In this document: positions 3,763-63,812 of the stretch, piece after piece | Position numbering within the stretch: the stretch's first letter is position 1 | Layout: every line of letters starts with the position of its first letter | Origin: Candidatus Magasanikiibacteriota bacterium | GTDB lineage: Bacteria > Patescibacteriota > Patescibacteriia > Magasanikbacterales > GWA2-37-8 | Direction of reading: 5' to 3' | Assembly: GCA_943357105.1 (NCBI GenBank) | Contig: CALRGC010000001.1 | Location: forward strand, 17,045 to 81,044 | DNA length: 64,000 bases | Made by a program: the position numbers and the translations under genes | The notes under the pieces: generated by a model | Database searches by the model: none | Told to the model about the DNA's origin: nothing | What the model saw: the letters and a program-made list of their open reading frames with translations, nothing else

Positions 3763-3784
3763 AGTGTGTTCAAGTATCACGCCT

Positions 3785-3950
3785 GAGAAGACATTTGGCA
3801 ATTTTTACCTGATAAAAGTTCGCATAATTGGCTATAAATTTTCGTTACGGCTCTAAGGGTAGAGCCGTTGCCCTGACGGGCACCACGAAAATTTACTTAC
3901 GCCAATTAGGGGCTCACTTTTATGCGGTAAAAATTGCCAAATGTCTTCTC
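3785..3950. repeat. Structured repeat family 1, copy 1: conserved ~130 bp core inside a 25-bp perfect copy-specific inverted repeat
   Basis: Terminal IR gagaagacatttggcaatttttacc / ggtaaaaattgccaaatgtcttctc; core is about 88% identical to 17006-17135; paired positions covary between the two copies. Confidence 0.8.
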
Positions 3951-5052
3951 AGTCTAGATTATTCTGGAATTGAGAAAACTGTTCGGTTACAAAATTTTTT
4001 ATTTCGTTTTTGAAACGGTCGGTAGAAAAATTTTGCGCGTGCGCGCGAATTTTGGCGCTGTCAAATGCGCTTGAGTCAAAATTCAGCAGTGTATGTAGTA
4101 GTGATTCCCAAGTTTGTTGTTCAAAAAATACTCCAGTTTCATTAGGCAAAACTGTTTCGGTAGCACCTCCCTGACTGTAAGCAATTACGGGGCGGCCAGC
4201 GGCCATGGCTTCGAGCGGAGTGATGCCAAAATCTTCTTTTTGGGGATGGATAAAGGCAATCGCTTCACTGAGAAGCTGAGCTTTTTCATCTTCGGAAATT
4301 TTTCCGTAAAATTCAATATTGGCCTTGGCGATTTTTTTCAGATAAGGATATTCTGATCCGATACCAAAAATTTTTAGCGGCCAACCCAGACGATTGAAAA
4401 CTTTTATTACTAAATCCAGGCGTTTGTATGGCACGAGGCGCCCACCGGCCACATAATAATTTCCTACTTTGGCCGCGGTTTGAAATCTATCGGTATCAAC
4501 CGGCGGAAAAATGACTTGACTGTCACGGCGATAATATTTATTGATGCGACGTTTTACCGTATTGGAATTGGCAATAAAATTATCTACGCGTTTAGTACTG
4601 AGTTGATCCCACAAACGCAAGCGATGAGTCAAAATTGGTAAGAAAATTTTTACCAGCCGATTATTTTTGAGATCCGACAGATAATTATTGCCGTCACCCC
4701 ACAAAAAACGCGGCGGGGTGTGACAATAGGCGATATGCAGAGTGTCGGTGGAGGTGATTATGCCCTTGGCAAACCCGGACGAAGAAGAAATAACCAGATC
4801 ATAGCCCTGGAGTTGGTGACGCTCGGTGGCTACAGGCATCAGTGGCAAATACCACTGGAAGATTTGATTGACAAAAGGCAAGCGATTGAGAAAAGAAGTA
4901 TGAATTTTATCCTGATCCAAATAATTTATTTTGTTGGCATCGTGAAATAAAACAAAAATTGGCGCGTCCGGCCAAATTTCGTGTAAGGCTTTGAGCACTC
5001 TCTCCGCCCCTCCATCTTGAGACAGATAGTCGTGAACTAGGGCGACCTTCAT
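3949..5052 (-). CDS. glycosyltransferase family 4
   Basis: 367 aa; N-terminal MKVALVHDYL; GT4-like; TGA stop at 3949-3951 overlaps the repeat IR. Confidence 0.75.
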   Translation of the reverse strand: MKVALVHDYLSQDGGAERVLKALHEIWPDAPIFVLFHDANKINYLDQDKIHTSFLNRLPFVNQIFQWYLPLMPVATERHQLQGYDLVISSSSGFAKGIITSTDTLHIAYCHTPPRFLWGDGNNYLSDLKNNRLVKIFLPILTHRLRLWDQLSTKRVDNFIANSNTVKRRINKYYRRDSQVIFPPVDTDRFQTAAKVGNYYVAGGRLVPYKRLDLVIKVFNRLGWPLKIFGIGSEYPYLKKIAKANIEFYGKISEDEKAQLLSEAIAFIHPQKEDFGITPLEAMAAGRPVIAYSQGGATETVLPNETGVFFEQQTWESLLHTLLNFDSSAFDSAKIRAHAQNFSTDRFKNEIKNFVTEQFSQFQNNLD

Positions 5053-6529: not shown

Positions 6530-6892
6530 GTGCAGAAGCTCGTCGGGGAGGCCATCCCCGCCGAAATGACCGTCGGCGGCGTCACCTATGAGATCCTCTC
6601 CTTCCACGAGGAAGGTGAAAACTCGGTCGGCGGCGGTGTCATGGTCGAGCGTTCCAAGACGCTCAACGCCCACCAGGGCAAAAAGGAGCGGGAACACCTT
6701 CTGGCCAACCAGGCCGACATTCCGGTGGCCTGCCGCGGCAGGACGGCTTTCGTCTTCACCGACGAAAGGCATCCTGACGTTCCCGACGAGGGCGTCTACT
6801 ATGTCTGCTGGCGCGACGGCCGCTGGGTCGAGGGCTGGGACTGGCTCGACGAAGACTGGGGTCGCGGCGACCGGGTGCTCCGTCGCAAGTAG
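6530..6892 (+). CDS. hypothetical protein encoded in a high-GC (~63%) island, probably foreign or a gene fragment
   Basis: GTG start; strong GC3 codon bias unlike its neighbours; antisense ORFs on the other strand are GC artefacts. Confidence 0.4.
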   Translation: MQKLVGEAIPAEMTVGGVTYEILSFHEEGENSVGGGVMVERSKTLNAHQGKKEREHLLANQADIPVACRGRTAFVFTDERHPDVPDEGVYYVCWRDGRWVEGWDWLDEDWGRGDRVLRRK

Positions 6893-7091
6893 CCCTAGGA
6901 TTCTGGGCACCTTGGTCCTCAAGGTCGCTTGGATCATCCTTCGGTTCACTTTGGTAATTGGCCCACATCAGTACGATCCTTCGGGATACGACTGGTGTGG
7001 GCGCTTCGTTTTTATGCTGGTTATGGTCTTAAAATAGGTTGACAAAAACACTTTTTGGATGTATGATAATAATATATAATTAGAAATAATT

Positions 7092-7328
7092 ATGCAAAAA
7101 AATAATTTACAATTTTCAGTTGTTTATCAACAAGATCTCGACGGTGGTTTTATTGCTACTGTTCCCGCTTTGCCTGGTTGCCATACTCAAGGAAAAGATT
7201 TATCTCAGACTACTTTTAGAATAAAAGAAGCGATAGATTTGTATTTGGAAAGTTTTAAATCTGAAAAATCTATTCGTCAGGCCGCACAAAAACAAATTTT
7301 ATTTGGAACGGTAATGATAGGTGGTTAG
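7092..7328 (+). CDS. hicB: HicB-family antitoxin
   Basis: 78 aa; HicB/UPF0150 N-terminal domain (FIATVPALPGCHTQGKDLSQ). Confidence 0.7.
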   Translation: MQKNNLQFSVVYQQDLDGGFIATVPALPGCHTQGKDLSQTTFRIKEAIDLYLESFKSEKSIRQAAQKQILFGTVMIGG

Positions 7329-7566
7329 TATGGTTAGCTTTAGTCAATTACCAAATCTAAAAGCAAAACAATTAGTGCGTGTTTTGGAAAAGATAGGTTT
7401 TGTGGTGGTCAGGCAAAAAGGCAGTCACGTTATTTTGGTTAATGAAAAAAGTAAACTGCGTACCGTTGTACCAGTGCACACAGGAGAAACAATTAGAAAA
7501 TCATTGTTGATGGAAATTATAAAACAAGTAAATTTAACGGTAGAGAATTTTTTGGAGTTGTTATAA
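7321..7566 (+). CDS. hicA: HicA-family mRNA interferase toxin
   Basis: 81 aa; KGSHVIL...VPVHTGETI motif; 8-nt overlap with hicB. Confidence 0.7.
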   Translation: MVSMVSFSQLPNLKAKQLVRVLEKIGFVVVRQKGSHVILVNEKSKLRTVVPVHTGETIRKSLLMEIIKQVNLTVENFLELL

Positions 7567-9438: not shown

Positions 9439-9476
9439 ATTTATCATTTCATAAATATTTTAATCTCTCTCGCCTG

Positions 9477-9596
9477 TGAAAATTCTCGGATAATTTGCAA
9501 CTCACTCCGGCTCTGGCCATGAACTCGTCGCTCGGCTCCTCAAACAGCAGGGCCAGCCACGCCTGCGTGACTCACAAATTATTTCCGAGAATTTTC
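9477..9596. repeat. Structured repeat family 2, copy A: GC-rich ~75 bp core flanked by a ~21 bp AT-rich inverted repeat
   Basis: IR tgaaaattctcggataatttg / caaattatttccgagaattttca; core matches the reverse complement of 63669-63747 at about 80% identity. Confidence 0.7.
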
Positions 9597-9597
9597 A

Positions 9598-10017
9598 ATG
9601 GCTCGTTCGATTAAAATATTTATTCCATTTTTATATATGAATATCCTTGCTATTGATTTTGGAACGAAAAATATTGGCCTGGCCTGGAGCGATACCGGGA
9701 TTGGGGTGGTGTTTCCGTTTGGGGTGATTAAGAATGAGGATAAGAATAAAGCTAAAAAAGAATTGCTCGATTTTATTAAAAAAGAACACGCGGAAAAATT
9801 GGTAGTGGGTCTGCCGCTTTCTCTGGATGGCGCGGAAAATAAAAACACTGAGCGTATTCGGGAATTTGTTGCAGATTTAAAAACCGATATCAAAGTAGAA
9901 TTTTTTGACGAGCGGTTTTCATCGGCGCAGGCGGATCGCTCCGAGGGTGGGGTGAGTCGCGATGAAAAATCGGCCATGATAATTTTGGAGGGATATTTGC
10001 ACAAGCTAAAAAAATAA
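9598..10017 (+). CDS. ruvX: Holliday-junction resolvase-like nuclease YqgF/RuvX
   Basis: 139 aa; N-terminal ILAIDFGTKNIGLA motif. Confidence 0.8.
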   Translation: MARSIKIFIPFLYMNILAIDFGTKNIGLAWSDTGIGVVFPFGVIKNEDKNKAKKELLDFIKKEHAEKLVVGLPLSLDGAENKNTERIREFVADLKTDIKVEFFDERFSSAQADRSEGGVSRDEKSAMIILEGYLHKLKK

Positions 10018-16126: not shown

Positions 16127-16976
16127 TATGTCATTAGGACGAGGATTAGGCGCGCTTATAACGCCCACCGGAAAAAATAATTCAGTCAGTGTCAGTGCCG
16201 ATGAAGGTAAAGTTTGGTTTATACCGCTGAGCAAAGTGACGGCTGATCCCAATCAGCCGCGTAAAAAATTTAATCAAGAGGAATTAAATCAATTAGCCGC
16301 GTCAATAAAAGAGCATGGCGTGCTTCAACCGATTTTGGTAGTAGAAAAAAACGACGGTGGTTATGAGTTGGTGGCTGGTGAACGCCGCTGGCGTGCTTCG
16401 CACATCGCGGGCATGACCACAATTCCGGCTTTAATTAAAAAATTGGCCGATCAACAAAAAGTAGAAATTTCTTTGATTGAAAATATTCAGCGCCAAGATT
16501 TGGATCCGATCGAAGAAGCCTTTGCGTATAAAAGATTGATGGAAGAATTTAATCTCACTCAGCAACAGGTGGCGGATAAAGTTGGCAAGAGTCGTCCGGC
16601 GGTGGCCAACGCGGTGCGATTGTTGGATTTACCGGTAGAGGTGCAGGCGGCTTTGGTAGAGAGGAAGATAAATTCTGGTCAGGCGCGTGCCTTGTTGGCT
16701 TTATCGACTGAAAAAGAACAGCTAGATATGCTCGCCTCGATGATGGGAGAAAAAATCACCGTGCGTGAGATTGAGCGTGAAGCCAACAAACAAAAAGTTT
16801 TGCATCATCGGCCGATTCGCAAAGATGCCAATCTGTTATTTTTGGAAGATAAATTGCGGGCGGAGTTTGGGACAAAAGTTAATATTACTCAAAAGGGGGA
16901 TAGAGGGACCGTCGTGATTGATTATTATTCGCAGGAGGAATTGAAGCGGGTGATTAAAAAATTACTTGGTGAATAA
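16116..16976 (+). CDS. parB: chromosome partitioning protein ParB/Spo0J
   Basis: ParB box GERRWRA; HTH. Confidence 0.9.
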   Translation: MKNNMSLGRGLGALITPTGKNNSVSVSADEGKVWFIPLSKVTADPNQPRKKFNQEELNQLAASIKEHGVLQPILVVEKNDGGYELVAGERRWRASHIAGMTTIPALIKKLADQQKVEISLIENIQRQDLDPIEEAFAYKRLMEEFNLTQQQVADKVGKSRPAVANAVRLLDLPVEVQAALVERKINSGQARALLALSTEKEQLDMLASMMGEKITVREIEREANKQKVLHHRPIRKDANLLFLEDKLRAEFGTKVNITQKGDRGTVVIDYYSQEELKRVIKKLLGE

Positions 16977-16987
16977 ATTTTTAAAAT

Positions 16988-17152
16988 AAAAAAGACTTTG
17001 GATTTTTTACCTGATAAAAGTTCGCATAATTGGCTATAAATTTTCGTTATGGCCCTAAGGGTAGGGCCATTGGCCTTACGGCCACCACTCAAATTTACTT
17101 AACGCCAATTAGGGGCTCACTTTTATGCGGTAAAAAATCCAAAGTCTTTTTT
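16988..17152. repeat. Structured repeat family 1, copy 2, between convergent parB and tsaD
   Basis: IR aaaaaagactttggattttttacc / ggtaaaaaatccaaagtctttttt; core about 88% identical to copy 1 with compensatory changes; A-tract and T-tract flanks. Confidence 0.8.
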
Positions 17153-17155
17153 ATT

Positions 17156-18235
17156 TTAAAAATTGAGGTGCCAATTTGGGTCTGCCTTTATATCCTCCCA
17201 TTTTGTATAATTATTCTTTTGGGCTTGGTAATATCCGGCCACGGCAATCATCGCGCCGTTATCCATGCAGTATTTTAATTCTGGGCAGAGGAATTTTGTG
17301 TCTGGGAAATTGTCGGTAATATTTTTTTGTAAACATTCCCGTAGTTTTTTATTGGCGCTGACGCCGCCAGCCAGCACCAAAGTTTTTGGTTTTATTTTTT
17401 CTACGGCCTTGAGAGTTTTATAGGCCAACACATCTACTATCGACTGTTCAAAGCTGGCGCAGAAATCTTCGCGGGTGATTGGGTCACCGGAGATACCTAG
17501 TCGGCTTGGCAACCAAGAAAAAATTTTTCCAATTCCAGTAGGATTTACAGCAGCTAGTTTATGATCCCGTAGCCAATACAGTGCGGCGGTTTTTAATCCG
17601 GAAAAAGAAAATTCAAAATTATTTTCTTTGATCATCGGACGCGGTAAATTTATCGCGTCAGTTTTGCCATTCATCGCCAGTTTGGAAATTTGAGGACCAC
17701 CGGGATAGGGAATATCCAATAATTTAGCGACTTTATCAAAACATTCACCAGCGGCATCATCTTTGGTGGCGCCGAGCACTTTATAACTTCCCGGTTCATT
17801 AATTTGGACTATTTCAGTATGACCTCCGCTCACGACTAGAGCAATCGCGGGATATTCGATTTTTTGTCCCGGCGTTAATTCCACCGAATATACATGACCC
17901 TGGAGATGATTGGTCGCAATAAGTGGGATGTTCCAGACCATAGATAAAGTGCGAGCGGCTTCCACGCCCACAATCAATCCGGTGATTAAGCCAGGTCCAG
18001 CCGTGACCGCGATGGCGTCAGGTTTCGGTTGGTCTTTGAGAATTTCTTCAATCAGTGGAATAATTTTTTCGGCATGCATGCGTCCGGCGATTTCCGGCAC
18101 TACACCGCCGTATTTTTTATGCACATCAATTTGCGAAGCAGTTTTTTCGGATAACACAACACAGCCTTGTTCACTACAATCTAGTAGTGCTACGGAAGTA
18201 TCATCACAAGATGATTCAATGCCAAGTATAATCAT
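17156..18235 (-). CDS. tsaD: tRNA N6-adenosine threonylcarbamoyltransferase TsaD
   Basis: 359 aa; Kae1/TsaD family (MIILGIESSCDDTSVALL). Confidence 0.9.
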   Translation of the reverse strand: MIILGIESSCDDTSVALLDCSEQGCVVLSEKTASQIDVHKKYGGVVPEIAGRMHAEKIIPLIEEILKDQPKPDAIAVTAGPGLITGLIVGVEAARTLSMVWNIPLIATNHLQGHVYSVELTPGQKIEYPAIALVVSGGHTEIVQINEPGSYKVLGATKDDAAGECFDKVAKLLDIPYPGGPQISKLAMNGKTDAINLPRPMIKENNFEFSFSGLKTAALYWLRDHKLAAVNPTGIGKIFSWLPSRLGISGDPITREDFCASFEQSIVDVLAYKTLKAVEKIKPKTLVLAGGVSANKKLRECLQKNITDNFPDTKFLCPELKYCMDNGAMIAVAGYYQAQKNNYTKWEDIKADPNWHLNF

Positions 18236-18275: not shown

Positions 18276-18314
18276 CAATAAAAACAGAACCCCACCGGCA
18301 TGTGCCGGTGGGGG
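18276..18314 (-). terminator. GC-rich intrinsic terminator for prs
   Basis: ccccaccggca-catg-ccggtgggg stem plus T-tract on the minus strand. Confidence 0.7.
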
Positions 18315-18349
18315 AAAGACTGTCGTGATACGCATCGGCTTGACGCGCA

Positions 18350-19288
18350 TCAAAACAAATCGCTGATTGAATCGCCGTCGTGGGTACGGCGAACGGCCTT
18401 GGCGAAGAGGCCGGCGACCGACACGACCTCGAGCTTGTCACTCACCTTCCCTTTCAAGGGGATGGTGTCGCTGACGAGCACCCGCTCGATGATGCTCTGG
18501 TTGATGCGGTCGATGGCCGGTCCAGAGAGGACCCCGTGGGTGGCCACGACCCGGACCGACAAGGCCCCGCGGTCCATGACGAACTTGGCGGCTTCCACGA
18601 TGGTCCCGCCCGTAGCAATTTCGTCATCCACGATGATCGCGTGCAGGCCACTGACATCCCCGATGAGGTTGGTGGCCGTCGCCTTGTCGTCGTCGCCGTA
18701 GCGGCGTTTGTCCACGACCGCGACTGGAAGTTGCAGACGATTGGCGAATTTGCCAATGTCCTTTGTTTCTCCCACATCGCCGGCGACCAGCACACAACCT
18801 TCCAGCTTCCACTGCTTCTTCATGTACTCGCAGAGCGTCGGCGCTCCCACCAGGTGATCGGTCGGGATGCGGAAGAAACCCTGGATCTGCGGGGAATGCA
18901 AGTCCATCATCATCACTCGATTGGCGCCAGCTGTATGCAGGAGATCGGCCATCAGGCGCGCCGTGATCGAGATCCGGGGCTTGTCCTTCTTGTCGGAGCG
19001 AGCATAGAAGTAGTAGGGCATGACGACCGTGATCCGATTCGCCGACGCGTGTTTGAGGGCGTCGACAGCGATGAGCATTTCCACAATGCCGTCGCTGACC
19101 GGAGGGGCCATGGTCTGGATGTAGAAGACATCACAGCCGCGGACATTTTCGCCGATCTGGACCATCAGATTCTCGTTGCTGAAGCGCACCGTCTTGCTCG
19201 GAGTGAGCTTGAGATCCAGATGACCGCAGATGTTCTCAGCGAAATGGGTGTGGCTGCTACCGGAGATGACGCGAATGTTGCCGTTCAT
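18350..19288 (-). CDS. prs: ribose-phosphate pyrophosphokinase (PRPP synthetase) at ~60% GC, atypical for this genome
   Basis: 312 aa full-length Prs; strong GC3 bias; TGA stop; overlapping antisense ORFs are GC artefacts. Confidence 0.9.
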   Translation of the reverse strand: MNGNIRVISGSSHTHFAENICGHLDLKLTPSKTVRFSNENLMVQIGENVRGCDVFYIQTMAPPVSDGIVEMLIAVDALKHASANRITVVMPYYFYARSDKKDKPRISITARLMADLLHTAGANRVMMMDLHSPQIQGFFRIPTDHLVGAPTLCEYMKKQWKLEGCVLVAGDVGETKDIGKFANRLQLPVAVVDKRRYGDDDKATATNLIGDVSGLHAIIVDDEIATGGTIVEAAKFVMDRGALSVRVVATHGVLSGPAIDRINQSIIERVLVSDTIPLKGKVSDKLEVVSVAGLFAKAVRRTHDGDSISDLF

Positions 19289-19431
19289 GGTGTTTCCTCA
19301 CTTTGAAAAGAGCGTTTGGGTACGAAAAACGATCCGCCTTGGATCGTTGCTGAGTTGTTAATTATATTAAACCTTCCAATACTCATAATGTCAATCAAGT
19401 GTCAATATATTTTTGTTTACTTTTGTTATAC

Positions 19432-19466
19432 CTTGACTTTTTGATAAAATAATATATAATATGGTT
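19432..19466 (+). promoter_or_regulatory. promoter TTGACT-17-TATAAT upstream of tRNA-Glu
   Basis: ttgactttttgataaaataatatataat. Confidence 0.5.
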
Positions 19467-20447: not shown

Positions 20448-21743
20448 ATGACACAGATACAAAAAAGTATCACTAATTTTGGTGAATTGGGCTTAGCGCC
20501 CAAATTACTCTCGGTCCTTGAGACCAATGGTTTTATTCATCCGACACCTATTCAACAGCAGGCTATCCCGTTTGCTTTGCAAGGTAAAGATGTAGTAGGA
20601 ATAGCGCAAACCGGTACCGGCAAGACGCTGGCTTTTGGTTTGCCGATGATTCAGATTTTGTCTCGCAATAAGGGGCAAGGTTTGGTATTGGTCCCAACGC
20701 GCGAGCTCGCTTTGCAGGTAGAAGAAACTTTACAAAAAGTTGGTCGCTCAATTGGGTTGCAAACCGTGGTGCTAATTGGAGGCGCGCCAATGTATGCGCA
20801 GACTAGAGCTTTGCGTAATAGTCCGCATATTATTATCGCTACTCCTGGGCGTCTGATGGATCACATGGAGCAGAAGACGGTAAATTTACAAAATGTTAAA
20901 ATCGTGGTGCTTGATGAAGCCGATCGCATGTATGATATTGGTTTTGCTCCACAGGTAAAACAAATTTTGCGCGCGGTGCCAAGCGATCGTCAAAGTATGT
21001 TGTTTTCAGCGACTATGCCGACCGCGATTGCTTCTATTGCCACCCACTCGATGAAAAATCCGGTGCGCGTGGAAGTGGCACCGGTGGGTACGACTGCCAA
21101 ACTGATTGATCAAGCCATATATATGGTAGGCAAAGAATTACGCTTGCAGTTACTTGATTTTTTATTAGAAAAAGAACCAGGCACAGTGTTGGTTTTTTCT
21201 CGCACCAAACATGGCGCCAAAAAAATCGCGTCTGCTATTCGCAATATGAATCACACCGCGATGGAAATCCACTCGGATCGTTCGTTGGCTCAACGCCGCG
21301 CCGCACTCAGTGGATTTAAATCTGGCGCGCATCGCGTACTGGTAGCTACTGATATTGCCGCGCGCGGTATTGATGTAACTGGAATTTCTTTGGTTATAAA
21401 TTTTGATCTGCCAAATAATTCGGAAGACTATGTGCATCGCATTGGCCGTACTGGTCGTGCCGGTGCGTCTGGTCGGGCGGTTTCTTTTGCTTCGCCGGAT
21501 GAACGCGGCGTGTTGCGTGATATCGAACGCCTGATAAAAAAACCTTTACCAATTTTGGCTTTGCCGGTGTTGCCGCCAAAGCGTCCTCAATCCAATTCGG
21601 CTCATACTATGAATCATGAACCTCGTGTCCATAGTCACGCCAATCACAGTCGACCAAGATGGGGAAATAATCAACGTGGTGGTGGAAACGGTCAGCGTAC
21701 CAATAAATTCTCTAATCCTCGTCACGCCCGCGGTCGCTACTAA
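20448..21743 (+). CDS. DEAD-box ATP-dependent RNA helicase
   Basis: Motifs AQTGTGKT, DEAD, SAT, HRIGRTGRAG; basic C-terminal tail. Confidence 0.9.
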   Translation: MTQIQKSITNFGELGLAPKLLSVLETNGFIHPTPIQQQAIPFALQGKDVVGIAQTGTGKTLAFGLPMIQILSRNKGQGLVLVPTRELALQVEETLQKVGRSIGLQTVVLIGGAPMYAQTRALRNSPHIIIATPGRLMDHMEQKTVNLQNVKIVVLDEADRMYDIGFAPQVKQILRAVPSDRQSMLFSATMPTAIASIATHSMKNPVRVEVAPVGTTAKLIDQAIYMVGKELRLQLLDFLLEKEPGTVLVFSRTKHGAKKIASAIRNMNHTAMEIHSDRSLAQRRAALSGFKSGAHRVLVATDIAARGIDVTGISLVINFDLPNNSEDYVHRIGRTGRAGASGRAVSFASPDERGVLRDIERLIKKPLPILALPVLPPKRPQSNSAHTMNHEPRVHSHANHSRPRWGNNQRGGGNGQRTNKFSNPRHARGRY

Positions 21744-21756
21744 TTTTATAAGTTTA

Positions 21757-21789
21757 AGCTCCTCCAGAATTTGGGGGAGCTTTTTGTTT
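21757..21789 (+). terminator. intrinsic terminator after the helicase
   Basis: agctcc...ggagct stem plus T-tract. Confidence 0.6.
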
Positions 21790-21900
21790 ACCATTGACTT
21801 TTTGGCTTAAGTATGATTAAATATTGTCCATGTTGTGCCGCCACTTCGGTTGCATGATGAGTCCAGCACCTGTATGGTGCGTTTCCCAGGAGTTATCCCA

Positions 21901-22071
21901 TGGCCAAGACCCGCGAGTTCGACCGCATCCCGTTCGCCGAGATCACCAAGAAGTTCCGGCAGGACAAGCTGAACGCCAATACGGCTTCTAGCCGTCCGAC
22001 CAAGCGTCGCCGCGAGAACCGGACCCAGGTCCAGTTCGTGCGGCCTGTCCGTCGCCGCAAGCAGTCGTAGG
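21901..22071 (+). CDS. small basic protein (56 aa) in a ~62% GC island with an AGGAG RBS
   Basis: MAKTREFDRIPFAEITKKFRQDKLNANTASSRPTKRRRENRTQVQFVRPVRRRKQS; GC3-biased; not in the ORF track (<60 aa). Confidence 0.4.
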
Positions 22072-22194
22072 CGGGCCTCTCCGCCGCTGTTCCTTGCGGG
22101 CAACCGCAGCAGGGCGTTGCGGTTCTCCTCCAGACCGTTCGCCTTCGCTATCTGCAAACAAATTTTGTTTTCAGATAGCGCGAACGATCTCTTA

Positions 22195-22229
22195 TAAAAA
22201 CATCCCTATTTCATAGGGATGTTTTTTTT
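22195..22229. terminator. bidirectional intrinsic terminator (catccctat-ttc-atagggatg with A- and T-tracts)
   Basis: Perfect 9-bp stem between an A-tract and a T-tract. Confidence 0.7.
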
Positions 22230-22254
22230 GTTATACTATCTTTATCAATTTTAT

Positions 22255-23298
22255 ATGTATAAACAATTAATTTTTCCCATCCTTTCTAAATTCGACCCCG
22301 AAGACGCCCATAATTTTATTTTTTCTTTTCTTAAAATAATTTTTCGTTTTCCCGGCGCCGGCTTGATAACTAAAAAAATTTATAGCGTCCAGAATAAAAA
22401 ATTAGAGCGTACGGTTTTTGGTTTGAAATTTAAAAATCCGGTTGGTCTGGCCGCCGGACTGGACAAAGGCGCCAAACTCTTTGAAGAACTAGCTTGTTTT
22501 GGTTTTGGCTTTATTGAAATTGGTACCGTCACTCCCAAGCCCCAGCCCGGCAATGATCGCCCGCGTCTTTTTCGTCTCAAGAGCGATGAAGCACTTATCA
22601 ATCGTATGGGTTTTAATGGCGAAGGGGTGCAAGCGGTGGTGGAGCGTCTGAAAAAAAGAAGCAACTATGAGGTAGTGATTGGTGGCAATATTGGAAAAAA
22701 TAAAGTAACCAGCAATGAAGAAGCGGTCAATGATTATGAAATTTGTTTTAATGAGCTTTTTCCTTGGGTTGATTATTTTGTTGTCAATGTTAGCTCGCCC
22801 AATACTCCCGGGTTACGCGCTCTGCAAGATAAAGAGCCACTCACAAAATTATTATGCCATTTGCAAAAATTAAATTGGCAAAAAGATAATCCCAAACCGA
22901 TTTTATTAAAAATTGCGCCCGATCTTACCAACGAACAGCTGGATGATATTATTGAAATTATCAAAAATACAAAAATTGATGGCGTGATTGCGACCAATAC
23001 TACTATTGAAAGAGGGGGACTAAAAATATCTTCGGCAGAAATTGAAAAAATCGGTATGGGTGGATTGAGTGGTCGTCCACTAATGAAGCGCAGTACTGAG
23101 GTCGTTCGTTATCTGGCCGATAAATCCGGACATAGTTTTCCGATAATCGCGGCGGGTGGTATTCATACTTCGGCCGATGCGATTGAAAAAATAAAAGCAG
23201 GCGCCACTTTGGTACAAATTTATACCGGTTTTATTTACGAAGGCCCGGCATTGATCAAAAAAATCAATCGAGCCATCTTGTCCACAGAGGTGGTTTGA
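22255..23298 (+). CDS. pyrD: dihydroorotate dehydrogenase (class 2-like)
   Basis: PyrD family; start trimmed to [10 protein letters not shown] because the longer ORF begins inside the terminator T-tract. Confidence 0.85.
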
Positions 23299-35430: not shown

Positions 35431-35533
35431 GTAACAGGGAGGCAAATTACTTTTGAGCGGGTTATGAGGCCAAGCCTCATCCTTTCGCCCTCGCGGGCGA
35501 AAAAAGCGAAAAAGTCATTTGCCTCACTGTTAC
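35431..35533. repeat. Structured repeat family 3, copy 1: ~57 bp GC-rich core with two short hairpins inside a copy-specific ~24-bp inverted repeat
   Basis: Core gagcgggttatgaggccaagcctcatcctttcgccctcgcgggcgaaaaaagcgaaaa is identical in 47331-47388; flanks gtaacagggaggcaaattactttt / aaaagtcatttgcctcactgttac. Confidence 0.75.
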
Positions 35534-45903: not shown

Positions 45904-46295
45904 GCGTTTACAGTGGATGATCGTCCCTGACCTAGTCAGGGGAGGAAAGTCCGAACACTTTCTTTGAAAAAAGAAAAAAGGCAGTGGGTAACACCCACCG
46001 GTTTGGCGGCAACGTCAAACAAGGGAAAGCGGCACAGAGACAATACTATCCCAGAGCAATTTGGGAGAAAGGTGAAAAGAATATGGAAGTTCTGACTCTA
46101 GAACAGAGCTACCATATACCGACCGTTGTGAGACGGTCTGGTGCCAAGCCCTGCCTGGGTGCAAGAGCAGCCTATGAGAGAGACATAGGAAAAGTTCGCT
46201 CGCTTGATTTTGGCAGTAATGCCAAAACTAGATAAATGATCGTCACGTCTTGCTAAACACAAGACGTACAGAATTCGGCTTATAACTGTAAACTC
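45904..46295 (+). ncRNA. rnpB: RNase P RNA (bacterial type)
   Basis: P4 halves gaggaaagtccgaac and acagaattcggcttat; P1 pairing gtttacagt/actgtaaac; gggtaacaccc element; terminator follows. Confidence 0.8.
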
Positions 46296-46300
46296 ATCAA

Positions 46301-47305: not shown

Positions 47306-47411
47306 AAAAAACACGGCGCATAGTTACCTTTGAGCGGGTTATGAGGCCAAGCCTCATCCTTTCGCCCTCGCGGGCGAAAAAAGCGAAAAGGTCACTGTGC
47401 GCCGTGTTTTT
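47306..47411. repeat. Structured repeat family 3, copy 2, inserted in the loop of a canonical bidirectional terminator (acacggcgca/tgcgccgtgt with A- and T-tracts)
   Basis: Same core as 35454-35511; flanks aaaaacacggcgcatagttaccttt / aaaggtcactgtgcgccgtgttttt. Confidence 0.75.
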
Positions 47412-59502: not shown

Positions 59503-59517
59503 ATGTAAGAATTATTG

Positions 59518-59591
59518 TGCTCCCAGATGGACTTGAACCATCGACCACCAAATTATAAGTCTGGTGCTCTAACCAGCTGAGCTATGGGAGC
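59518..59591 (-). tRNA. tRNA-Ile with UAU anticodon (AUA decoder)
   Basis: Acceptor GCTCCCA/TGGGAGC; anticodon loop CTTATAA; Ile-type D and T arms. Confidence 0.7.
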
Positions 59592-62517: not shown

Positions 62518-63615
62518 ATGAAAACAAAAGATTTTGATTATTTTCTTCCACACGAATTAATCGCGCAATTCCCAGCGGAGCCGCGGGATTCTTCACGGTT
62601 GATGGTGGTGGATAAAAATACTCAGCAGACAAAGCATGAACATTTTTACGATATTATAAATTATTTGCAAGCAGGGGATTTGCTGGTGTGGAATAATTCC
62701 AAAGTTTTTAAGGCGCGTTTGCGGGGAACGATTGAACTGGATGAAAAAACCGCGGATACTAAAATTCCGGCCAATGCCACAGATAAAATTCTCAACGCCG
62801 CTAAGGTAGAAATATTTTTGGTGCGGCCGATGGAAAATTTTGGCGTGTGGAAGGCGCTGGCCAAACCAGGGAGAAAATTGCGCCTGGGAATAAAAATAAT
62901 ATTTGCTAAAGATTTTTTTGCGGAAGTAATTTCCAAAGAGAGTGATGGCACATTTTTATTGCAATTTAAAGATGATGATATGGAAGTGCGCGCTAAAGCC
63001 AATAAGTATGGCGAAGTGCCAACACCGCCATATATTAAATCCGGTGAATTTGCCAATTTGGATAAACGCTATCAGACGGTGTATGCCAAGCACGAAGGCT
63101 CGGTGGCCGCACCCACGGCCGGGTTTCATTTCACACCGGAGCTGATAGAGAAATTAGAAAAAAAGGGAGTGCAGTTTGCTGAAGTAACATTACATGTTGG
63201 ACTCGGTACTTTTATGCCAGTAAAGACTGAGGCAATCGAAGATCACAAAATGCACAGTGAATGGGTAGAGCTATCCGACAAAAATGCGCATCTAATAAAT
63301 AACGCCAAAGCCGAAGGTCGCCGCGTCATCGCGGTCGGCACTACTACTGTGCGCACCGTCGAAGGCTTGGCTCTAAAATTTGCCAAAGATCAGCTTGAAC
63401 CATATCAAGGCGATATAAATATTTTTATCACGCCTGGTTTTAAATTTAAAATGATTGACGCGTTGATTACCAATTTTCATTTACCGCAGTCTACACTTTT
63501 GATGCTCGTTTCCGCTTTTGCTGGTGACAGGGAATTTATGCTCAAATGTTATGAAGAAGCCGTAAAAGAAGAATATCGATTCTTTAGTTTTGGTGATGCG
63601 ATGTTGATAAAATAG
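62518..63615 (+). CDS. queA: S-adenosylmethionine:tRNA ribosyltransferase-isomerase
   Basis: 365 aa; QueA family. Confidence 0.9.
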   Translation: MKTKDFDYFLPHELIAQFPAEPRDSSRLMVVDKNTQQTKHEHFYDIINYLQAGDLLVWNNSKVFKARLRGTIELDEKTADTKIPANATDKILNAAKVEIFLVRPMENFGVWKALAKPGRKLRLGIKIIFAKDFFAEVISKESDGTFLLQFKDDDMEVRAKANKYGEVPTPPYIKSGEFANLDKRYQTVYAKHEGSVAAPTAGFHFTPELIEKLEKKGVQFAEVTLHVGLGTFMPVKTEAIEDHKMHSEWVELSDKNAHLINNAKAEGRRVIAVGTTTVRTVEGLALKFAKDQLEPYQGDINIFITPGFKFKMIDALITNFHLPQSTLLMLVSAFAGDREFMLKCYEEAVKEEYRFFSFGDAMLIK

Positions 63616-63646
63616 AGAAACAAATATTTTTATTGAACGAACCGCT

Positions 63647-63767
63647 GAAAACACGAGGAAATAATTTGTGAGCCGACGAGGCGTGGCTGGCTCTGCTGTT
63701 TGAGGAGCGTCAAGCGACGAATTCAGAGCCAGAGCTTCGGCGGGTTGCAAATTATCCGAGTGTTTTC
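63647..63767. repeat. Structured repeat family 2, copy B (inverted orientation relative to copy A)
   Basis: IR gaaaacacgaggaaataatttg / caaattatccgagtgttttc; core about 80% identical to the reverse complement of 9498-9573, including a compensatory pair change. Confidence 0.7.
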
Positions 63768-63812
63768 ATAGGTGAGTGAGATAAAAATATTTGTTTCTCT
63801 ATTTTTGAGAAT

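Follow-up and report, generated by a model that had tools for sequence, protein, structure and literature searches.

Organization of the region between the helicase gene and pyrD

The DNA analysed here is a stretch of 64,000 nucleotides (nt) from contig CALRGC010000001.1 of a Candidatus Magasanikiibacteriota bacterium (assembly GCA_943357105.1, positions 17,045 to 81,044), referred to below as the window, and it harbors a GC-rich island between a DEAD-box helicase gene and pyrD. The island carries a small open reading frame (ORF) for a basic protein of 56 amino acids (aa), which together with the signals around it appears to form a self-contained transcription unit of ~400 nt at 21794-22229. 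The observation made in the initial annotation is confirmed, in that a genuine small gene lies here below the 60-aa cut-off with its own predicted promoter, ribosome-binding site and terminator; the 56 aa given there are encoded exactly, while the coordinates of 21901-22071 were shifted by +1 from the true 21900-22070. The strong ribosome-binding site described there is an AGGAG 7 nt before the ATG, the gene is indeed high in GC (63.7% for the ORF and 60% for the island at 21830-22190, versus 41.6% for the window), and the GC-rich hairpins and the terminator placed downstream are found at 22070-22085, 22095-22180 and 22196-22229. The neighbourhood check suggested at that time, next to helicase or pyrD genes in relatives, revealed counterparts between the two genes in seven other contigs, with the frame linked to the Shine-Dalgarno (SD) motif open in all of them. 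The features observed between 21756 and 22257 are as follows.

21756-21782 (+): terminator of the upstream DEAD-box helicase gene, a 12-bp stem followed by a T-run, seen only in island-bearing genomes
21794-21822 (+): candidate promoter by consensus match, with -35 box TTGACT at 21794-21799, a 17-nt spacer that includes TG at 21814-21815, and -10 box TTAAAT at 21817-21822
21837-21853 (+): stem-loop of the 5' untranslated region (UTR) with a CUUCGG loop, a few nt past the predicted transcription start
21888-21892 (+): SD motif AGGAG, 7 nt 5' of the ATG
21900-22070 (+): small ORF from ATG to a TAG stop, its translation giving the 56 aa MAKTREFDRIPFAEITKKFRQDKLNANTASSRPTKRRRENRTQVQFVRPVRRRKQS
22070-22085 (+): small GC-rich hairpin immediately 3' of the stop codon, within the allele-specific portion of the 3' UTR
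22095-22108 (+): hairpin P1, UGCGG-GCAA-CCGCA with a GNRA-type loop, from the alignment and pair counts
22111-22145 (+): hairpin P2, AGGGCG..GCGGUU paired with GACCGU.CGCCUU, its apical loop pyrimidine-rich and of variable length
22146-22180 (+): hairpin P3, a 15-bp near-perfect palindrome CGCUAUCUG.AAACAA / UUGUUU.CAGAUAGCG
22180-22190 (+): invariant tail GCGAACGAUCU 3' of P3, with an alternative partner AGACCGUUCGC at 22132-22142
22196-22229 (+): intrinsic terminator with a 14-bp stem, a 3-nt loop and T8, common to the island-less relative L002, where it ends the helicase gene
22229-22257 (+): pyrD extended -10 element TGtTATACT (22229-22237) and pyrD start ATG (22255), kept in all relatives including L002

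The promoter is predicted to be near-consensus, with an extended -10 element, tRNA-like and strong. Its motif cTTGACTTTTTGGyt is kept in all eight island copies and the pattern common to them reads cTTGACTTTTTGGyt-N-TG-N-TWAAWT, and the CTTGACTTTTTG core also precedes the tRNA-Glu gene at 19432. A consensus scan of 21800-22230, which was crude and of sigma-70 type only, detected no promoter on the minus strand. Folding of the whole island transcript gave a z-score of -7.3. At the boundaries of the unit, the hairpin of the helicase terminator has a counterpart in the relatives with diverged sequence, and the PyrD N-terminus read from the ATG at 22255 aligns with the N-termini of the relatives.

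Distribution of the island in related genomes

Relatives were found with pyrD as the anchor, and the fetched contigs in which pyrD is 80-85% identical were compared. The order of helicase gene, ~500-nt GC-rich intergenic region and pyrD was observed in L003, L082, L083/L084, L085 and L086 (labels of the compared loci), and a profile built from six small ORFs added only L094 and L095, in each of which the small ORF directly follows the helicase gene. The island was present in seven of the eight other contigs examined, from six distinct relatives. Every copy comprises the promoter, a 5' hairpin usually with the CUUCGG loop (CTTCGG motif in six of eight), GGAG followed by ATG, an intact ORF, the conserved 3' module and the common terminator; in the 5' hairpin of L082/L094, seven of 11 predicted pairs are altered on one side with pairing retained. 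The remaining contig, L002, is without the island, its helicase stop being directly followed by the distal terminator hairpin common to the island-bearing genomes, and around pyrD homologues of 74% identity the neighbours differ and the island is missing. This distribution suggests that the island natively belongs to a subclade of Candidatus Magasanikbacteria (candidate phyla radiation, CPR/Patescibacteria).

The L002 record (CAYHBZ010000002.1, 4493-7050) carries the label "uncultured Gammaproteobacteria"; it is syntenic with the Magasanikbacteria loci, its pyrD is 80% identical, and the record is probably mislabelled. At L002 5935-6003, a ~70-nt insertion in the pyrD 5' UTR includes a hairpin GCGCCACC...GGTGGCaCGC that weakly resembles the 5' hairpin of the island.

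Mosaic evolution of the unit

Very different levels of conservation were observed along the unit. The promoter and the ~135-nt 3' module, terminator included, are 84-96% identical between copies; in the pairwise comparison the module reaches 84-94%, compared with only 51-62% at codon position 3 of pyrD, and the synonymous sites of the flanking genes are saturated, with synonymous divergence (dS) of 0.8-0.9 across the clade; strong purifying selection on the promoter and the 3' module would account for this. The ORFs show 40-55% nucleotide identity between copies and are effectively unalignable, and no homology between the allele groups (A versus B/C) was detected by BLASTP, with an hhalign probability of 0.2%. 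Closely related genomes may differ completely in this segment, such as L003 and L095 (helicase dS 0.13; left flank 96%, variable segment 46%, 3' module 96%) and L085 and L086 (helicase dS 0.35; left flank 97%, variable segment 45%, 3' module 90%), and distant genomes may have an allele in common, such as L082 and L094 (helicase dS 0.78, small-ORF dS 0.12) and L086 and L095 (helicase dS 0.90, small-ORF dS 0.26). As the stretch that runs from the -10 box to ~20 nt beyond the stop codon is unalignable in close genomes and common to distant ones, it must have been exchanged between lineages by recombination, with breakpoints located in the promoter and shortly before hairpin P1. The changes within the 3' module are lineage-specific, with L003 and L095 having the same linker and L082 and L094 having the same AGAUCG and CCCUCGCUAUUUGU, and such lineage-specific substitutions in the flanks indicate vertical descent. 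The alleles keep their composition (charge, GC at codon position 3, terminal Arg-TAG) rather than their sequence, and the ratio of nonsynonymous to synonymous divergence (dN/dS) of the small ORF in the deeper pair L003-L085 is 0.35.

Coding potential of the small ORF and properties of the peptide

An open frame alone is weak evidence of coding here, because six ORFs of 45-116 aa overlap one another on the two strands of the island; by our estimate, a 56-codon open frame would arise by chance at such GC in roughly one of four cases per frame. More specific signals were observed in the SD-linked frame, where GC at the first, second and third codon positions (GC1, GC2 and GC3) is 0.56, 0.47 and 0.88, an arrangement that 0 of 20,000 permutations reached (p < 5e-5). 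All eight copies follow the order GC3 (0.74-0.88) > GC1 > GC2 in this frame, with permutation p values from 0.045 to <5e-5, and all eight hold an intact SD-linked ORF of 50-79 aa. GGAG lies 4-7 nt before the ATG in each of them, within 5' UTRs that are otherwise unalignable. An SD motif at the first ATG was found in only three of 56 native genes of the window, whose upstream regions are A/T-rich (GC-rich prs is among the exceptions), and since native genes almost never carry an SD motif, the conserved GGAG is significant; it is to be read as a predicted translation signal, the window being without a 16S 3' end. In the L086-L095 comparison, the ORF holds three indels, all of 3 nt, whereas those of the UTRs are of 1 nt. 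The stop codon is TAG in all eight copies, with the ORFs ending ...CGG-TAG, and native genes use TAA in 68%, TAG in 21% and TGA in 11% of cases. On these grounds the small ORF is very probably translated. Two further ideas about this segment were dropped, namely a selected RNA structure inside the ORF, as the folding z-scores of the ORF alone are inconsistent (-3.5 to +2.1), and a read-through frame after the TAG, as the offsets from the stop to the 3' module have no common frame. The RNase P RNA of the window (class A, 174 bits, 45905-46298, +) lies in a stretch of only ~42% GC, so that structured RNA is not the default reading of a GC-rich segment in this genome.

The window peptide has an isoelectric point (pI) of 12.0 and a net charge of +13, and the eight peptides range from pI 11.2 to 12 and from +7 to +13, with grand average of hydropathy (GRAVY) values of -0.7 to -2.1 and no hydrophobic stretch. 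Across the copies, Arg makes up 17%, Pro 12.5% and Gly 2.5%, with Cys and Trp absent; relative to the expectation for GC-rich sequence, Gly is depleted and Lys is enriched. AlphaFold2 modelled the window peptide as one helix (residues 12-29) with the remainder disordered (mean predicted local distance difference test score, pLDDT, 67). A basic peptide that binds nucleic acids or associates with ribosomes is plausible and fits this composition. With these GRAVY values and charges, the peptides do not match the small hydrophobic, membrane-inserting toxin of a type I system (hok/sok, fst or txpA-like). The C-terminus of the neighbouring DEAD-box helicase (21588-21743) is likewise a basic, Gly/Arg/Asn-rich disordered tail, ...RPRWGNNQRGGGNGQRTNKFSNPRHARGRY, whose composition resembles the C-termini of some small-ORF alleles, e.g., ...NRPQRGGRSR.

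Predicted structure of the 3' RNA module

The best-fitting fold of the 3' module comprises the three tandem hairpins P1-P3 and the invariant tail, followed by the terminator. This fold pairs 98% of the alignment cells, and almost every variant leaves the pairing intact. P1 has 95% of its cells paired, with a GCAA, GAAA or GCUA loop depending on the copy; P2 has 99%, with one pair occurring as A-U, G-U and G-C; and P3 has 98%, each of its changes being to or from a wobble pair. The length variation of P2 (2-7 nt) is confined to the apical loop, and since its steps are not multiples of three, the region is non-coding. The P3 palindrome occurs once in the window and in all eight island copies, with only chance partial matches otherwise among 95 loci, and the tail GCGAACGAUCU is invariant in the eight copies. 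The alternative fold S2, a long hairpin closed by AGACCGUUCGC and GCGAACGAUCU, has 93.7% of cells paired versus 98.0%. With a sequence this conserved, covariation does not reach statistical significance; the three-hairpin structure is compatible with the data rather than proven by them. The distance from the stop codon to P1 ranges from 18 to 60 nt, and this spacer is not conserved in sequence between alleles. Mimicry of 16S helix 45 and the anti-SD by AACCGCAGC..GUUGCGGUU-CUCCUCC was considered and dropped, as CCUCC was found in only two of eight copies, and pairing of the 3' UTR with the SD motif was dropped as not conserved.

Homology searches and the question of foreign origin

The peptide was compared with several large collections. 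A word-index search of 5.8 billion clusters returned only the peptide itself, as did an exhaustive phmmer search of 1.84 billion representatives, in which no bS21 was hit either; the self match comes from a Logan contig of 1,652 nt whose sequence equals that of window 21535-23186. Pattern and tblastn scans of GTDB genomes and JGI metagenomes gave nothing outside this locus, and neither tblastn with the peptide nor blastn with the island matched phages or plasmids. Pfam, NCBIfam, PADLOC, PHROGs and a PDB profile search gave no match to the small protein, and Pfam holds no family for any of the eight members even at E <= 10. For the RNA, Rfam over 21000-23000 returned only sub-threshold matches (E 0.01-10), most of them on terminators, with the ORF and the 3' module free of any; at gathering score the window yielded tRNAs and RNase P RNA alone, and the islands of the seven relatives yielded nothing. 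ARAGORN detected no tRNA or transfer-messenger RNA (tmRNA) in the island region, and with Rfam also negative, tmRNA, tRNA and any known RNA family were rejected. A DNA-pattern scan for the 3' module gave five chance matches in JGI metagenomes, located in high-GC coding DNA and lacking the palindrome, and no match in viral contigs. A second island copy, of the diversity-generating-retroelement type or as a template repeat, was not found within the window. A dif/Xer site was also rejected, as no match to the dif consensus was found, and the window holds no terminus since the cumulative GC skew rises monotonically across it.

The interpretation in the initial annotation is supported in part; from composition it had concluded that the gene is foreign. 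As a claim of recent import this does not stand, the island being a clade-wide unit with flanking dS of 0.8-0.9, GC-rich in all copies and with no donor in the databases searched. Since all relatives show the same atypical composition and codon use, these traits are old or actively maintained. The ancestor of the clade may have acquired the whole unit in one ancient event, and by our estimate partial amelioration could leave GC3 at ~0.7; alternatively, GC may be upheld by selection or by biased conversion at a recombination-prone locus. No integrase or transposase gene was found next to the island, the check for an integrase being confined to these surroundings, and the island has no flanking repeats beyond a TTATAA microhomology.

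Two other GC-rich islands were observed in the window. The first, at 18282-19410, contains prs (ribose-phosphate pyrophosphokinase, 18350-19288, -; best PDB matches 5t3o and 7pn0), which at 59% GC and GC3 0.80 is foreign-looking or atypically composed and carries a GAGGA SD motif, a GC-rich terminator and an apparent AT-rich TTGACA...TAATAT promoter. The other, at 6530-7030, contains a 120-aa ORF (6530-6892, +; GC3 0.83, TAG stop) with no Pfam, NCBIfam or PDB match. The ~140 nt after this ORF are moderately GC-rich and include UUCG-type loops, and the neighbours on either side are a sugar-transferase gene and a HicB/HicA-like pair (7092-7566).

Interpretation of the unit

From the observed anatomy, conservation pattern, coding periodicity and allele mosaicism, we infer transcription, translation, stabilisation of the mRNA and binding of nucleic acids by its product. 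With moderate confidence, the unit is interpreted as a native polymorphic locus that yields a stabilised mRNA at high level, the encoded product being a disordered polycationic peptide that is probably nucleic-acid-binding. The extended -10 promoter would drive an mRNA that begins with the 5' stem-loop and a canonical SD motif, unusual in an SD-poor genome, and that ends with the ~100-nt three-hairpin module and the intrinsic terminator, these 5' and 3' structures presumably stabilising it for high expression. The predicted product would be a polycationic, Arg/Pro-rich peptide of 50-79 aa, largely disordered around one predicted helix, which would bind RNA, DNA or ribosomes electrostatically in the manner of a protamine, a histone tail or an RNA chaperone and may act together with the adjacent helicase. 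The cassette of -10 box, 5' UTR and ORF exists as very different alleles that have been swapped between lineages by recombination within the conserved flanks.

Several observations weigh against this interpretation. The Arg/Pro/Ala richness of the peptides is partly expected of any GC-rich ORF; within alleles dN/dS is ~1 and substitutions are spread evenly over the three codon positions (7/6/7 and 11/11/13), so that no signal of purifying selection on the amino-acid sequence is seen and the peptide sequence may be irrelevant. Codon choice is unlike that of the host, with AAG used in six of six cases versus 15% in native genes and with CGG also host-rare, and the rarity of these two codons is not what a gene optimised for high expression would show. 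A comparative study of CPR ribosomes reports the anti-SD motif in just 48% of the 16S genes of Parcubacteria (PMC9297842). The unit is dispensable, as L002 lacks it. Finally, the near-invariance of the 3' module, including its unpaired 11-nt tail, exceeds what a generic stabiliser needs and points to a specific function at the RNA or DNA level; an additional specific RNA-level role of the module is suggested by the same pattern.

This last point leads to the main rival, in which the act of translating the small ORF matters rather than the peptide, and the 3' module is a 3'-UTR-derived or dual-function small RNA (sRNA) or a protein-binding RNA whose stability, processing or activity is set by the sequence-free ORF upstream, as in SgrS/SgrT or in control by upstream ORFs. 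We regard this as rather unlikely. In its favour, the module with its unpaired tail is the most conserved part of the unit (84-96%), the ORF alleles have no detectable homology and evolve at dN/dS ~1, the TAG stop preceded by CGG is conserved, and two mutually exclusive folds are possible for CGUUCGCC. It is opposed by the conserved composition of the peptides, with their strong positive charge, 2.5% Gly and enriched Lys, and by the stop-to-P1 distance, since at a spacing of 18-60 nt a terminating ribosome cannot consistently touch the module; nor does the module show an Rfam match or significant covariation, and no target or partner of it was recognised. A further proposal treats the island as structured non-coding RNA and the ORF as a chance product of its high GC content. 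The length and GC-richness of this intergenic region within an AT-rich genome, the transcript z-score of -7.3, the many overlapping ORFs on both strands and the even spread of substitutions over codon positions all speak for it, but the 3-base GC periodicity of the SD-linked frame in eight of eight copies, the excess of GC1 over GC2 in every copy, which favours the plus sense, the intact frame and GGAG-ATG kept within unalignable sequence, and the 3-nt indels make it improbable, as do the inconsistent ORF z-scores, the ~42% GC of the RNase P RNA and the lack of an Rfam match.

Equally improbable is a recent foreign gene from a high-GC, SD-using donor. A GC3 of 0.88 versus a native median of 0.41, the host-unlike codons, the SD motif in an SD-poor genome and the similarly GC-rich prs and 120-aa ORF would suit such an origin; the island nevertheless occupies the identical site in seven other contigs whose flanking dS is 0.8-0.9 and is GC-rich in all of them, the substitutions of the 3' module follow lineage, no mobility genes adjoin the island and no repeat of it occurs in the window, and no donor or homologue was found in the 5.8 billion clusters, the 1.84 billion representatives, GTDB genomes, JGI metagenomes, phages, plasmids or viral contigs. 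Its position also invites comparison with a leader peptide or attenuator of pyrD (pyrBI/pyrE type) or a PyrR-type switch, as a small ORF, hairpins and a terminator lie directly upstream of a pyrimidine-biosynthesis gene. This is largely refuted and very hard to credit: the stop lies 126 nt before the terminator, at a distance that varies between copies; pyrD has its own conserved extended -10 element overlapping the terminator tail; L002 keeps terminator, promoter and pyrD without the island; the pyrD homologues at 74% identity have different neighbours; and no PyrR element (RF00515) was found in Rfam at E <= 10.

A bolder reading is advanced tentatively and as a rather unlikely possibility. 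The unit might represent a new platform-plus-cassette kind of gene in CPR bacteria, in which the ultra-conserved promoter and a new ~100-nt three-hairpin RNA motif with its invariant tail would serve both as platform for expression and regulation and as homology arms for recombination, and non-homologous GC-rich small-ORF idiomorphs would be swapped under diversifying or frequency-dependent selection; the peptide would then be a conflict or interaction factor (host, phage or self-recognition) and the GC content would be actively maintained and no relic.

If the ordinary reading is true, the unit adds one more lineage-specific basic small protein. It is an orphan family with unusually clean comparative evidence from uncultured CPR bacteria, whose small proteins are almost unexplored. 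Its conservation is inverted, with a coding segment unalignable in close relatives, a promoter and 3' UTR nearly frozen, and alleles common to lineages in which the adjacent genes have saturated synonymous sites. Such a pattern speaks for a specific role of the RNA, for balancing or diversifying selection acting on the peptide, or for the two together. It also calls for caution with composition-based calls of horizontal gene transfer, as a gene of 88% GC3 in a 42% GC genome turns out to be a long-resident locus of the clade.

Other features of the window

The pyrD gene (22255-23298; loci L004-L081) has its nearest relatives outside its own small clade in Bacteroidota, with 60-68% identity in dozens of genomes, which suggests that the CPR clade acquired pyrD from Bacteroidota. 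An adenosylcobalamin (AdoCbl) riboswitch was detected immediately downstream of pyrD in L003 (7087-7226), L083 (4080-4226) and L086 (3360-3504), and since none was found in the window at gathering score, the region downstream of pyrD has been remodelled.

Repeats were also observed, such as two pairs of ~185-nt elements (3776-3959 with 16976-17164; 9451-9636 with 63607-63805) whose internal inverted repeats have 44-51-nt arms ~95 nt apart and whose copies are 79-87% identical, giving them the look of miniature inverted-repeat transposable elements or palindromic repeats; and an 85-nt direct repeat (35433-35517 and 47310-47394, 91% identity) with GC-rich hairpins, the second copy of which sits inside an inverted repeat with 25-nt arms (47307-47411). 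A tRNA-Ile with anticodon TAT (UAU) at 59517-59591 (-) represents an uncommon bacterial route to reading AUA.

Comparison with known systems

The small protein is similar to ribosomal protein bS21 (rpsU) in its size of ~56-70 aa, its pI, its strong SD motif where such motifs are rare (compare the SD-dependent expression of bS21 in the SD-poor Bacteroidia) and the superficial motifs PF..(+)(+)F(+) and (K/R)PT..R(K/R)R. A bS21 identity was nevertheless rejected, as no PF01165 match was found at E <= 10, hhalign against E. coli and B. subtilis bS21 gave a probability of 0.2%, and the island peptide evolves far too fast, with alleles unalignable in close relatives and L002 without the locus.

Integron attC cassettes likewise combine an exchangeable small orphan ORF with an imperfect palindrome conserved between copies. 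The island differs from them in being a single unit with its own promoter and no adjacent integrase, and in having its breakpoints in the promoter and upstream of P1 rather than at the palindrome; by inspection, P3 and the closing stem lack the RYYYAAC...GTTRRRY core, with the GTT/AAC orientation reversed. Allelic or idiomorphic loci, such as comC/agrD pherotypes and bacteriocin-immunity cassettes, resemble the island in their sharply bounded divergent alleles between conserved flanks, in an allele tree discordant with the genome tree and in differing alleles in close relatives, although the island has no signal peptide, processing enzyme, sensor or immunity gene nearby, its predicted product is hydrophilic and polycationic, and the variable segment is bordered by a promoter and an RNA module, not by genes.

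Dual-function sRNAs (SgrS/SgrT, RNAIII/hld, SR1/SR1P) resemble the unit in architecture only and not as a homologous family, being short independent transcripts with a poorly conserved small ORF at the 5' side and, as in the island, a much better-conserved structured 3' part ending in an intrinsic terminator. The island is distinguished by an ORF that fills most of the transcript, by its conserved composition and by its CPR host; it has no sequence or Rfam relationship with these sRNAs, and no base-pairing target, Hfq-type partner or seed was recognised for it.

Protamines, the histone H1-like Hc1 and the basic tails of DEAD-box helicases are nucleic-acid polycations that conserve composition rather than sequence. 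The island peptides have no homology with any of these, are much shorter than Hc1, and would bind nucleic acids only by prediction; they are nonetheless like these families in their very high Arg content, pI of ~12 and predicted disorder, in the fast turnover of sequence with charge retained at a dN/dS near 1, and in the position of the gene next to a helicase with a basic RGG-like tail of its own.

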